From NCBI GenBank assembly GCA_000004695.1, contig CH709164.1:1-3280 (forward strand): a DNA stretch of 3,280 nt, given 5' to 3'. A model generated the notes under the pieces. The model ran no database searches. It was not told the DNA's origin and saw only the letters and a program-made list of their open reading frames with translations. A program made the position numbers and the translations under genes. Position 1 is the first letter of the stretch. The number at the start of each line of letters is the position of its first letter. Positions 1-3,280 of this stretch are shown here, in pieces. This DNA comes from Dictyostelium discoideum (lineage: Eukaryota).

Positions 1-89
1 GATATATTAATCAGTGGTGTTCTTTTCCTAGATTCGTAATCTGCTATCTTTCACAGAGGCATTGGTTTATTTCAGTTGCTCCAATTCAA

Positions 90-434
90 ATGTTAGAAGA
101 ACTTTACACTATGAGTAAATCTTCAAAATATTCAAATCAAGTACTTTTTTCAAGTGGTAAAGAAGAATATTTATCAAGTTTTAATAACTTTATATCTCAA
201 AGATTTGATGATTTTAAAATTATACTTCAAGAAGTTTCATCATTTAATGATAATAATAATAATAATAATGAATTACAACTATTTAAAAATTTAAAAATTG
301 ATTCAAATTTATTAATGAAATATACAGATACTATAATTACTTTAATTTCAGAGAAAAAACAAAATTTAATTGATAATGATGATAATCAATTTAATGATGA
401 AGTCTTGGGAACCATCAACTCTCAAAGTATATAG
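90..434 (+). CDS. Hypothetical low-complexity ORF (poly-Asn). Frame +3 is open from window position 3, so it may continue upstream of the window. It is possibly the C-terminal tail of the element's upstream ORF, and it overlaps the YR ORF in another frame across 370-434.
   Basis: Frame +3 runs from position 3 to the TAG at 432-434. Codon usage is Dictyostelium-like (AAT, GAT, TTA) at about 20% GC, with (AAT)6 at 252-269. I recognise no conserved domain. Composition jumps to about 38% GC near 400, where the YR domain begins. Confidence 0.3.
   Translation: MLEELYTMSKSSKYSNQVLFSSGKEEYLSSFNNFISQRFDDFKIILQEVSSFNDNNNNNNELQLFKNLKIDSNLLMKYTDTIITLISEKKQNLIDNDDNQFNDEVLGTINSQSI
246..269. repeat. Trinucleotide tract aat gat (aat)6, encoding NDNNNNNN in ORF 90..434.
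   Basis: Read directly. Confidence 0.9.
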
Positions 435-1316
435 CTCCAGTTATACAAGATTCCGCAATTTCTGTACTTTGAACTCTTTGAATCCAGCAAACATTACCTT
501 AGTTGTTTTCATGGATTATCTTACACATCTTTTCAAGCACAAACCTCCGTTAGCCTTCTCAACAATTAACGGTCATAGCTCTATGTTGAATCAGTTGTTG
601 CTCCTTAGGAATCAAACTGATATTGTTAATGATCCATTCATTACAAGAATTATAACTGGTATTCACAAGTTACGTCCTTCATCAGCAAAGTATAAAGAGA
701 TATGGGATGCAAATCAAGTATTCAAGCACTTATCTACTATCAAAGTCATCCCCAAGTTCACATACACTGCGCTATTAAACAAGACACTTGTTCTCTGTAA
801 AATGTTTGGTTTAGCAAGATCATAAGACTTGGTGAAGTGGTCGTTCAAAGGTCTCATTATTACTACTGACTCAATCAAAGGTCCAGTTATTAATGCTAAA
901 GAACAAAGAAGTGGTGTTGTTTCAATCTTATAATTAACTTCGTTAGATGATACAAACTCCCAAGTATGTCCTGTTCGCCTCCTTGCAACATACCTTAGAG
1001 CCTCTAAAGGAAGAAGAAAGCCCCATTCGGGTGACTCTGTCTTTGTTAAGAATGAGGGTGAACCTCTGGAAGTTAATGATATTAATTCAATTGTATTATC
1101 AACACTCTCAAGCTCCGGTATTGATACTAGCAAGTTCAAATCTCACTCTACCCGTTCAGCTATGGCTTCTCTGTGCTGTTGTCCAATAATGTTCCTTTCC
1201 ACGTTGTCAATAAGATGAGTCGCTGGAAATCAAACGATACTGTAGATACCTTCTACGATAAAAGAATCATTGGTGAAAAATCTGGTGCCACTATTTATAC
1301 GTTTTTATTTTCTTAA
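370..1316 (+). pseudogene. DIRS-like tyrosine recombinase (integrase-family YR), copy 1. It is disrupted by in-frame TAA codons at 823-825 and 931-933 and by a 2-bp (tg) insertion frameshift at about 1172-1175, which moves the reading frame from +1 to +3.
   Basis: The translation carries the YR N-terminal core-binding-like segment (SWEPSTLKVY...FRNFC...VVFMDYL...FSTINGHSS). Box I reads GLARS*DLVKWSF, with the TAA at 823 sitting at the usual Glu of R-x-x-E-L. A K-E-x-R hairpin region (NAKEQRSG) and box II H-x-x-R (KFKSHSTRSAMAS) follow. After the frameshift come RWKSNDTVDTFYDKR, which holds the W and the catalytic Tyr, and a stop at 1314-1316. The ORF track splits this gene across 370..825 (+1) and an off-frame 947..1189. 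Confidence 0.75.
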
Positions 1317-1417
1317 AAATTTCGCAAAACTCATAAAAATAAGTGTTTTCGACCCTTCACAACTTTCTGCACTGTGTCGGTTCGGAATTTTTATGTTTTT
1401 CGACCTTGCGCAATGAT
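1284..1417 (-). repeat. Truncated inverted copy of the distal roughly 120 bp of the 291-bp HSE-bearing unit. It behaves like a right-terminal inverted repeat abutting the YR stop codon.
   Basis: By manual alignment, 1284-1417 is the reverse complement of about 2266-2386 and 2561-2699 at roughly 90% identity, including ggtgccactatttatacg matched to cgtataaatagtggcac. The homology stops abruptly after caatgatcg at 1417. Confidence 0.85.
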
Positions 1418-2100
1418 CGAAGACAGGGGCCTCACGCATGCTAACCAAAGCAAAAGCTTTATTAAGTAAAATAAAAATACTGTTCGATATTATACGAACG
1501 AGCCTTCGTAAACGACGCATGTCTGTGATTATAGCAAACACGGACTCCCTTAACTGGGAGCCTTACTATGCCCCCATACGTTTTTCAACTATACACTATC
1601 TCTGTATAATACTCACTTATTAAAGGAATACCCATGCAAACACTCATTTTAAACTGGAAGGCGATTCAGTCGACCGACCAAGGTTTACACCCGAGAGCAA
1701 AACCAATGACTTGACTATAAACAGGACATTGTCGGTGAATTATTTGAACCAACTGATATCCACCCTGATATCACGTGGACTGTACTAGATTACAGTCATC
1801 GCGACTATACAGGCGATATCTATTACGATCTCTTTGCCTTTAAAGGTGACGATGATGTAGGTGACGAAGAGAGTCAGTTAGAGACTCTGTTATACCTCAC
1901 TACACCAACTGAGATAGATTTTAACTTATTGGCGTTTGGGGCAATTTCAGTAATTGACGATGGTGAAGGGGATTGACATTCTTAGTAGATGGTATGGCAA
2001 TCGTGGAATTACGGTTTACTGTAGAATCAACCTGTTGTAGAATCATATATACTGACACAACGGTCATTGGACTTTATACAGAACAGGGTCAGGGGTGTTT
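1418..2100. other. Unique central segment at roughly 40% GC, lying between the two inverted repeat blocks. I cannot place its origin. Its last roughly 30 bp show weak similarity to the unit end.
   Basis: I find no match to any other part of the window. GC content is clearly higher than in the flanking AT-rich repeats. It contains small direct repeats: ctgatatc twice (1753 and 1765) and tgtagaatca twice (2019 and 2035). Confidence 0.5.
1710..1976 (+). other. Met-less open frame of 88 codons bounded by TGA codons. It is acidic (GDDDVGDEESQLETLLYL...). It could be an exon or captured coding fragment, or chance.
   Basis: I translated frame +3 codon by codon from 1710 to 1973 and found no stop. 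A TGA sits at 1707-1709 and another at 1974-1976. There is no ATG, which is why the ORF track does not list it. Confidence 0.2.
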
Positions 2101-2198
2101 ATGACAGTCTTTGAGTTTGCGAAATTTATATTATCATATATATATATTATGAATAACATTTATTTATTTGAATTTCCCAAATATTTAAGATAATTTTT

Positions 2199-2216
2199 TA
2201 GAATGTTCTAGAACAT
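2199..2216. promoter_or_regulatory. Heat-shock element in unit 1. Three alternating perfect pentamers (aGAAt gTTCt aGAAc) sit inside the 14-bp perfect palindrome atgttctagaacat. An A-rich TATA-like run (aagaataaaaaaa) follows.
   Basis: tagaatgttctagaacat matches the Pelham consensus CTnGAAnnTTCnAG at 13 of 14 positions. The palindrome was checked by hand. Confidence 0.55.
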
Positions 2217-2489
2217 GAGAAGAATAAAAAAATTTCGAAAGAAAAGTAAAAATTTCGAACCGGCACAATGACGCGATCATTGCACAAGGTCGAAAAACTT
2301 AAAAATTCCGAACCGACACTATGCACAAAGTTGTGAAGGGTCGAAAATACTTATTTTTTTGAGTTTTGCGAAATTTTTAAGAAAATTAAAAATTTAATTT
2401 ATTAAATTATATTTTATATTAAATATATATATATATATTATGAATAACATTTATTTATTTGAATTTCCCAAATATTTAAGATAATTTTT

Positions 2490-2507
2490 TAGAATGTTCT
2501 AGAACAT
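2490..2507. promoter_or_regulatory. Heat-shock element in unit 2, identical to the unit-1 HSE and 291 bp downstream of it.
   Basis: The same tagaatgttctagaacat sequence, followed by gagaagaataaaaaat. Confidence 0.55.
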
Positions 2508-2740
2508 GAGAAGAATAAAAAATTTTCGAAAGAAAAGTAAAAATTTCGAACCGGCACAATGACGCGATCATTGTCTAAGGTCGAAAAACTGAAAAATTCC
2601 GAACCGACACTATGCACAAAGTTGTGAAGGGTCGAAAACTCGTATTTTTTTGAGTTTTGTGAAATTTTTAAGAAAATAAAAACGTATAAATAGTGGCACT
2701 AAAAAACTAAAACAATTTGATTTATGGAATTCCGACTTAG

Positions 2741-2756
2741 GGCGGGTGGGATGGGA
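2741..2756 (+). other. Canonical G-quadruplex motif GGGCGGGTGGGATGGG, preceded by TTAGGG.
   Basis: Four GGG runs with loops of 1, 1 and 2 nt, read directly. The surrounding sequence is more than 85% AT. Confidence 0.5.
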
Positions 2757-2818
2757 CTAATATATATATATATAATATAAAAATAATTTAATAAATTAAA
2801 TTTTTAATTTATATTATC

Positions 2819-2842
2819 ATATATATATATATATATATATAT
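2819..2842. repeat. (AT)12 microsatellite. Shorter (AT)7-8 tracts sit at 2423-2438 and 2761-2776.
   Basis: Read directly. Confidence 0.9.
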
Positions 2843-3280
2843 TATGAAATTTGGACGACAGTATTTAAGAAACCACCAGATTTTTCACCAATGATTCTTT
2901 TATCGTAGAAGGTATCTACAGTATCATTTGATTTCCAACGACCCATCTTCTTGACAACGTGGAACGGAACGTTATTTGACAACAGCAGAGAAGCCATAGC
3001 GGAACGGGTAGAGTGAGATTTGAACTTGACAATATCAATACCTGACTTTGAGAGTGTTGATAGTACAATTGAGTTCCTCTCATTAACTTAGAGAGGTTCC
3101 CCCTCATTCTTAATAAAGACAGAGTCACCCGAATGGGGCTTTCTTCCTCCTTTAGAGGCTCTAAGGTATGTTACAAGGTGGCGAACAGGGCATACTTGAG
3201 AGTTGGTATCATCTAATGATGATAATTCTAAGATTGAAACAACACCACTTCTTTGTTCTTTAGCATTGATAACGTGGCCC
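2842..3280 (-). pseudogene. DIRS-like tyrosine recombinase, copy 2. This is the 3' portion; the 5' end runs off the window. It has an in-frame TAA (seen on + as tta at 3088-3090), and its C-terminus is altered by the 174-bp segment, with the stop falling at 2842-2844.
   Basis: The reverse complement of 2874-3280 aligns to copy 1 at 880-1290 at roughly 90-92% identity. Its translation is ...NAKEQRSGVVSILELSSLDD...KPHSGDSVFIKNEGEPL*VNERNSIVLSTLSKSGIDIVKFKSHSTRSAMASLLLSNNVPFHVVKKMGRWKSNDTVDTFYDKRIIGEKSGG... The frame is continuous through box II and the Tyr motif because this copy has no tg insertion. Confidence 0.75.

Follow-up and report, generated by a model that had tools for sequence, protein, structure and literature searches.

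The two inverted recombinase copies on the analysed stretch of DNA, an unplaced contig of 3280 bp from Dictyostelium discoideum AX4 (in the following, the window), are the 3' parts of the tyrosine-recombinase (YR) ORFs of two separate insertions of the retrotransposon DIRS-1, situated in a nested DIRS cluster. They are, with high probability, decayed fragments in which an excess of silent differences stems from selection on the active element lineages, followed by decay after insertion. An earlier sequence-only reading of the same DNA had recognized a recombinase but missed that it is the tyrosine recombinase of DIRS-1.

Identity of the element

When translated conceptually, window positions 397-1287 (copy 1) yield a Pfam Phage_integrase domain (PF00589, 1.7e-9) and a SAM-like N-terminal domain, and copy 2 matches PF00589 at 5.4e-9. 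The catalytic motifs HSTRSA and RW...Y are present in the window translations, i.e., these possess the Phage_integrase fold with the HxxR...Y region that a DIRS-1 element should encode. A search of a large protein collection returned 179 matches, essentially all of them from D. discoideum and close relatives, and many of these are gene models with fused domains of reverse transcriptase (RT) and RNase H. The RT/RNase H region is situated outside the window: in copies 95-98% identical to those of the window, the domains RVT_1 and RT_RNaseH are followed by Phage_integrase, as is typical of DIRS-1, and the ortholog of copy 1 in a second strain (locus L005, see below) extends upstream into that region.

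An intact reference element (L002:15789-20609) has a length of 4821 bp, inverted LTR arms that are 97% complementary, and an internal complementary region (ICR) with 100% complementarity to both outer tips, namely the first 34 nt of the left and the last 40 nt of the right LTR. Of the three ORFs of the element, the longest has the YR at its C-terminal end. In this reference, the YR frame stays open over 546 codons and is free of in-frame TAA; its first ca. 230 codons overlap, in a different frame, with the end of the upstream RT/RNase H ORF, and window position 397 marks the first codon past this overlap. Since its length, LTRs, ICR, and three ORFs agree with published DIRS-1 (4814 bp, inverted non-identical LTRs, ICR of 88 bp; PMC7192593), the element is identified as DIRS-1 (Tdd-1), the founding tyrosine-recombinase retrotransposon, described from D. 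discoideum (Cappello et al. 1985; PMC7192593; PMC2665215). The LTR pieces within the window are 88-97% identical to the LTRs of the reference element and thus represent its inverted, non-identical terminal repeats of about 330 bp. In the ICR of copy 2, positions 2779-2810 pair at 97% with the outer tip of the right LTR of this copy (2383-2414), and positions 2806-2830 match the left-LTR tip at 2123-2147.

Organization of the window

The features of the window are compiled in Table 1.

Table 1. Features of the 3280-bp window (copies 1 and 2, the two recombinase copies; L002, locus of the intact reference element; ACTFIT, the second D. discoideum strain, with the orthologous locus L005)
Feature	Position	Strand	Remarks
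AT-rich stretch, 21% GC, with ORF 90-434	1-396		Not DIRS-1; missing from the orthologous locus
Copy 1, DIRS-1 tyrosine-recombinase ORF, disabled (reference ORF 720-1608, 296 codons)	397-1284	+	95.7% identical to L002:19239-20127
Copy 1, stop codon TCA to TAA in the catalytic box-I motif (LARS*DL)	823-825	+	All other copies TCA; derived on the copy-1 branch
Copy 1, stop codon GAA to TAA	931-933	+	G at this site in 12 of 12 other copies
Copy 1, 2-bp TG insertion, frameshift	1172-1173	+	Placement ambiguous within TGTG 1170-1175; found in the ACTFIT ortholog but in none of the other copies
Copy 1, junction of the 174-bp deletion, GTG microhomology	1284-1285	+	Alignment of 11 copies; 19 recombinase 3' ends surveyed
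Copy 1, right LTR, interior fragment, truncated at 1419	1285-1419	+	88-96% identical to LTRs in L001, L002, L004, and L005
Non-DIRS spacer, 40% GC; 1434-2110 pseudogenised, jumbo-phage-like	1420-2122	+	Match to Logan contig L006; same sequence in the ACTFIT ortholog
Left LTR of a third DIRS-1 element, 5' terminus intact at 2123/2124, inner end truncated	2123-2391	+	Direct repeat 2123-2147 = 2806-2830
Copy 2, right LTR	2383-2757	-	Contiguous as in canonical copies (2384-3274 vs. L002 932-46, 95%)
Copy 2, ICR, overlapping the recombinase stop codon	2760-2848	-	Complementary to the right-LTR tip and to a left-LTR-type tip
Copy 2, last 145 YR codons and native stop (2842-2844), running off the window	2842-3279	-	Ortholog L005:14852-13356, 98.0% identical to the reference
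Copy 2, stop codon TAA (tta on the + strand)	3088-3090	-	CAA in the main family, GAA in copy 1; present in both strains
Probable low-quality contig end	3076-3280		Five isolated mismatches and scrambled final bases

The two recombinase copies form an inverted repeat, in which positions 886-1287 pair with 2874-3273 at 91-93%, and which goes on in non-coding sequence (1285-1419 with 2565-2699). The LTR terminus of the third element, AATTTATATTATCATATA, equals the start of the left LTR in the reference element (L002:15789). A further repeat of 291 bp, seemingly a tandem one, consists of two adjoining LTRs, the left one of this third element and the right one of copy 2, and is due to nested insertion and not to a local duplication.

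Concerning the first part of the window (1-396), no BLAST match was found in any of the loci, and its sole protein match is P0059, the gene model of this very locus. In the second strain, the sequence upstream of L005 position 10912, where AX4 has this stretch, is canonical DIRS-1. The stretch is either a chimeric contig end or a rearrangement specific to AX4. P0059 (DDB_G0294286 of AX4, "partial") opens with the translation from window position 3 and then avoids the stop codons by modelled introns; it thereby combines the ORF without matches, portions of the DIRS-1 recombinase pseudogene from which the stops are spliced out, and a part of the phage-like fragment described below. This annotated gene ("hypothetical protein") is an artefact.

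Orthologous locus and quality of the contig end

Window positions 397-3273 have their ortholog in a second strain (GCA_054883475.1, locus-tag prefix ACTFIT) at L005:10912-13788, with 99.83% identity. It is located on a contig of 4.9 Mb and, on this one contig, lies 76-98 kb from the end, amid other pieces of DIRS and an element that carries an Integrase_H2C2 domain. The inverted repeat reaches about 1.45 kb there, and the YR of copy 2 extends about 1.06 kb further than in the window.

Between AX4 and ACTFIT there are zero differences over window positions 397-3075. Five differences specific to AX4 (3076, 3079, 3100, 3147, 3205) are all found within the last 205 bp, and at each of them AX4 has G or C and the ACTFIT ortholog A or T; the last seven bases (3274-3280) are scrambled in the AX4 contig only. 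Two of the five sites, 3076 and 3079, were checked against the remaining family members, and at both of them ACTFIT exhibits the consensus or a common family state. Owing to this clustering of all differences at the contig end, the five differences in copy 2 and the scrambled tip are probably read-end errors in low-quality sequence, by which the apparent private changes of copy 2 would be inflated. Conversely, lesions common to the window and the ACTFIT ortholog are real and predate the split of the two strains.

Selection on the recombinase

Codon-aware alignment of copy 1 and copy 2 over 133 codons, with a single 2-bp indel, revealed codon differences of which 17 are synonymous and 13 nonsynonymous, besides two codons with a stop, and the differences are distributed over the three codon positions as 8:7:22. 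With a ratio of synonymous to nonsynonymous sites of 94:305, dS amounts to 0.228 and dN to 0.056, such that dN/dS is about 0.25 (Fisher p 8e-5). Using the ACTFIT sequences for the same region, in which the five suspect differences are gone, dN/dS is 0.22, and over the full non-overlapping YR ORF of the ACTFIT ortholog (293 codons; 26 synonymous and 17 nonsynonymous differences) it is 0.17 (Fisher p 3.6e-8). The ratio is thus clearly below 1, and not close to it, in the short as well as in the long comparison. The sequence-only reading had counted roughly 15 synonymous and 14 nonsynonymous differences, had put the random expectation at a ratio of roughly 1 to 3, and had concluded that most of the divergence took place under purifying selection; the counts and the proportion of sites given above agree with these figures, and the conclusion is supported.

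One might ask whether errors of sequencing, a mutational bias, or misalignment could have produced the excess of synonymous differences, as the five differences close to the end of the contig are probably errors and the genome is strongly AT-biased. Such an origin is highly improbable: the signal persists and even strengthens with the ACTFIT orthologs; in a neutral simulation that keeps the observed mutation spectrum, 12.3 +/- 2.8 synonymous differences are expected versus the 26 observed, a value reached in none of 5000 runs; the coding alignment contains no indel other than the one of 2 bp; and the region of overlap with the upstream ORF behaves differently, as expected.

Every other pair of DIRS-1 copies tested exhibits a dN/dS of 0.11-0.18. 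As low values are found in all pairs tested, the signal is family-wide and not peculiar to the two copies of the window.

In the overlap of YR and RT/RNase H, of which about 190 codons are common to both copies in the ortholog (L002 18520-19220), the YR frame has a dN/dS of about 1 and a dS of only 0.03. Such values would accord with dual coding together with the upstream ORF, to which we attribute them.

Relationships of the two copies

Identity to the intact reference element amounts to 98% in copy 2 and to about 95% in copy 1, whereas between the two copies it is 94%. In neighbour-joining trees, the copies group by genome, with ACTFIZ, ACTFIW, and AX4/ACTFIT forming one clade each. Copy 2 is nested inside the AX4/ACTFIT main group, together with the intact reference, and copy 1 with its ortholog constitutes a lone branch, which is sister to the whole AX4/ACTFIT group in 72% of bootstrap replicates. 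On this branch, polarised with the two outgroup clades, there are 12 synonymous, 6 nonsynonymous, and 2 nonsense changes (synonymous excess p 3e-4). The synonymous excess on copy 1's own branch indicates that its lineage stayed under selection after the split, and the sequence comparison thus implies that copy 1 derives from a separate, once active lineage that was still under selection after its separation from the main group.

Among the 13-18 DNA copies and 92 comparable proteins, neither another member of the copy 1 lineage nor an intact relative of copy 1 was found. Of these proteins, only P0059 and P0028, both gene models of the locus itself, genuinely resemble copy 1 more than the reference; a further protein, P0032, likewise has the higher score with copy 1, but the alignments behind its scores differ in length (195 vs. 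250 aa). The DIRS-1 sample, about 125 kb out of four assemblies, is small, and the designation of copy 1 as a subfamily rests on one locus and its ortholog. Two subfamilies, each of them in a clade with intact members, had been envisaged on the basis of the window itself. With respect to separate lineages this is upheld by the tree and by the identity values (98% of copy 2 to the reference vs. 94% to copy 1), but among the copies and proteins compared, intact members were found only in the clade of copy 2 and none in that of copy 1. The accompanying statement that the two copies are not the product of decay of a single copy agrees with copy 2 being more similar to an intact element at another locus than it is to copy 1.

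An affiliation of copy 1 with the clade of D. cf. discoideum (ACTFIZ), suggested by the residues PKFTYT and GIDT, was also considered; it is rejected, as the DNA tree places ACTFIZ as an outgroup (88%).

The arms of the inverted repeat are adjacent, inverted, and have coding as well as non-coding sequence in common, as would be the case if one dead recombinase fragment had been duplicated in place and both arms had subsequently drifted neutrally. We regard this as very unlikely, given that dN/dS is 0.17-0.24 instead of about 1, that copy 2 is nearer to other loci than to copy 1, and that the structures downstream of the two arms differ, with the LTR of a third element and foreign DNA situated between them.

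Inactivating lesions

Over the full extent of its ortholog, copy 1 exhibits three in-frame stops (two of them within the window, the third, like further indels, upstream in the ortholog), deletions of 3 bp and 16 bp, the inserted TG, the deletion of 174 bp, and an LTR that is truncated. In copy 2, over the region of the ortholog aligned to the reference, only one stop is found. Not a single lesion is common to both copies, and those within the window are fixed in the two strains. A different knock-out in each copy had already been noted, with TAA at 931-933 and the TG insertion at about 1172-1173 in copy 1 and TAA at 3088-3090 in copy 2; these lesions are all present and none is shared, which supports that the two copies were knocked out independently. 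The stop at 823-825, just upstream of the region considered in that reading (892-1290), was not listed there.

The stop codons of the two copies pair with GAA or CAA in the respective other copy. A genetic code of the kind known from ciliates, in which TAA would be a sense codon, was considered for this reason; it is rejected, since the reference YR frame is free of in-frame TAA. The standard genetic code of Dictyostelium also counts against such a reading.

Purifying selection in the coding sequence and the conservation of the locus in two strains could likewise be expected of present or recent host-domesticated recombinase genes, on which selection would act through the amoeba and not through the transposon. 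Of all the explanations considered, this is the least probable one. Stops occur in each of the two copies and are fixed in AX4 as well as in ACTFIT, copy 1 is in addition frameshifted and has lost its C-terminus, and the surroundings are the LTRs and ICR of canonical DIRS-1; furthermore, the two strains are essentially identical at the locus, such that its conservation is uninformative. An intact, syntenic, single-copy ortholog in other Dictyostelium species, which along with expression data would speak for domestication, was not found.

The 174-bp segment and the ICR-side breakpoint

The segment of 174 bp that distinguishes copy 2 from copy 1 comprises the native end of the ORF (...GGFLNTVVQIS*), followed by the AT-rich ICR and by the first part of the right LTR. 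It is present in 15 of the 19 recombinase 3' ends surveyed, with both outgroup clades included. The segment is thus ancestral and was deleted from copy 1, contrary to the previous assumption that copy 2 had gained it. With this deletion, copy 1 lost its last 10 codons together with the stop codon, its ICR, and some 58 bp of right-LTR sequence. Experiments have shown the ICR to be essential to retrotransposition (PMC7192593). That the 174 bp represent an intron, spliced from an RNA that was then retrotransposed in processed form, is rejected: none of the four possible deletion frames has GT...AG ends, and GTG microhomology exists at the junction.

Three independent DIRS-1 copies of the 19 surveyed break within 2 nt of each other, namely at window 1284/1285, at L002 3947, and at L001 13977. 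The shared breakpoint falls just after ...GGTGAAAAATCTGG(TG) (also given as ...AAATCTGG(TG)), about 30 nt upstream of the ICR. Two of the coincident breakpoints belong to deletions that remove the ICR (174 bp and 179 bp) and one is a junction to the interior of an inverted LTR; GTG microhomology is found at two of the three. The ICR between the breakpoints folds as a strong hairpin (z -2.9). In the 19 copies sampled, the 3' end of the recombinase near the ICR may thus constitute a recurrent breakpoint hotspot that yields ICR-less derivatives of DIRS-1.

The phage-like spacer

Positions 1434-2110 of the spacer between the DIRS-1 pieces match L006, a Logan contig of 2.9 kb and 46% GC from a public sequencing run, with 96% and 87% DNA identity. 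The gene order of L006 is collinear with that of the Erwinia jumbo phage pEa_SNUABM_54, and one of its ORFs matches phrog_2921 at 3e-21. Compared to an intact ORF of 173 aa (P0121), the spacer exhibits three frameshifting indels, and its substitutions are biased to third codon positions (20:13:41). The spacer is identical in both D. discoideum assemblies (ACTFIT: L005 11935-12637). Relatives of the phage-like ORF were not found among the IMG/VR viral contigs, direct blastn of the spacer against a phage collection gave zero matches, and neither Pfam nor PHROGs assigned a function to the ORF.

Judged from its sequence, the spacer looks like phage-derived DNA that was fixed within the DIRS cluster. 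A more specific interpretation, i.e., enterobacterial-type jumbo-phage DNA that was integrated in a centromeric DIRS-1 array and pseudogenised there, with the possible ICR-side breakpoint hotspot as a separate matter, is advanced tentatively, as we consider its chances to be slightly below even. If true, the spacer would represent a phage-to-eukaryote transfer kept in heterochromatin, plausibly from phage-infected bacterial prey. If confirmed, the phage-like spacer and the ICR-adjacent hotspot of deletion and rearrangement could matter more than the main finding.

Proposed history of the locus

The cycle of DIRS-1 leads from RNA to cDNA, then to ICR-guided reconstitution of a circle and to integration by the YR (PMC7192593). 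DIRS elements integrate preferentially into other DIRS copies, which results in fragmented, nested centromeric arrays (PMC2665215). The window would thus be a piece of a nested DIRS-1 cluster, a repeat array of the kind that forms the centromeres of D. discoideum, in which two DIRS-1 insertions came to lie tail-to-tail in opposite orientation, such that their recombinase 3' ends and right LTRs would constitute the inverted repeat.

Element lineages that lose the function of their proteins would cease to be copied, so that the differences between lineages would be mostly synonymous, and with such selection on active lineages a low dN/dS between copies is to be expected. Copies once inserted would no longer be selected and would gather stops, frameshifts, and deletions. 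Copy 2, with its one stop, belongs to the main recent family, and copy 1, which is more decayed, would stem from an older, separately evolving lineage. The identity of the element, the dN/dS values, the tree, the polarity of every lesion, and the loss of the 174 bp are shown by the data; the timing, with a selected phase followed by a neutral phase, is what we infer from these patterns. DIRS-1 proteins can work in trans (PMC7192593); as this should weaken the selection on single lineages, the strong constraint observed is incompletely explained.

Comparison with known elements

The locus contains a known element that behaves as expected, and the main point of the sequence-only reading is correct but ordinary. 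It provides a worked example of how transposon copies record first the selection on their parent lineage and then neutral decay, in an element described since 1985; it documents that an older DIRS-1 lineage, about 5% diverged, persists as a fossil in the form of copy 1; and it bears on practice, as DDB_G0294286 is to be treated as an artefact and the contig end as error-prone.

According to the lineage (master-copy) model of transposons, dN/dS is low between active lineages, and copies decay neutrally after insertion ("dead on arrival"). The window resembles this model in its low dN/dS followed by private inactivating lesions in each inserted copy, and nothing essential differs.

Crypton DNA transposons likewise possess a tyrosine recombinase, but lack an RT. 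The DIRS1-like, PAT-like, and Ngaro retrotransposons are similar to the element of the window in having a tyrosine recombinase with the same catalytic motifs and no DDE integrase (PMC3266345). These other YR families have split direct repeats or no terminal repeats, whereas the window exhibits the inverted LTRs and the ICR that are specific to DIRS-1.

Compared to DIRS-1 itself, the window contains the same element, with the recombinase ORF 95-98% identical to that of the intact 4.8-kb copy and with the same LTRs and ICR, nested among other DIRS copies near a contig end. Despite this general agreement, there are some differences: only fragments are present (two 3' parts of the recombinase, two full or partial right LTRs, and one left LTR), and copy 1 is without ICR and about 5% diverged, compared to under 2% among near-complete AX4 copies (PMC2665215).
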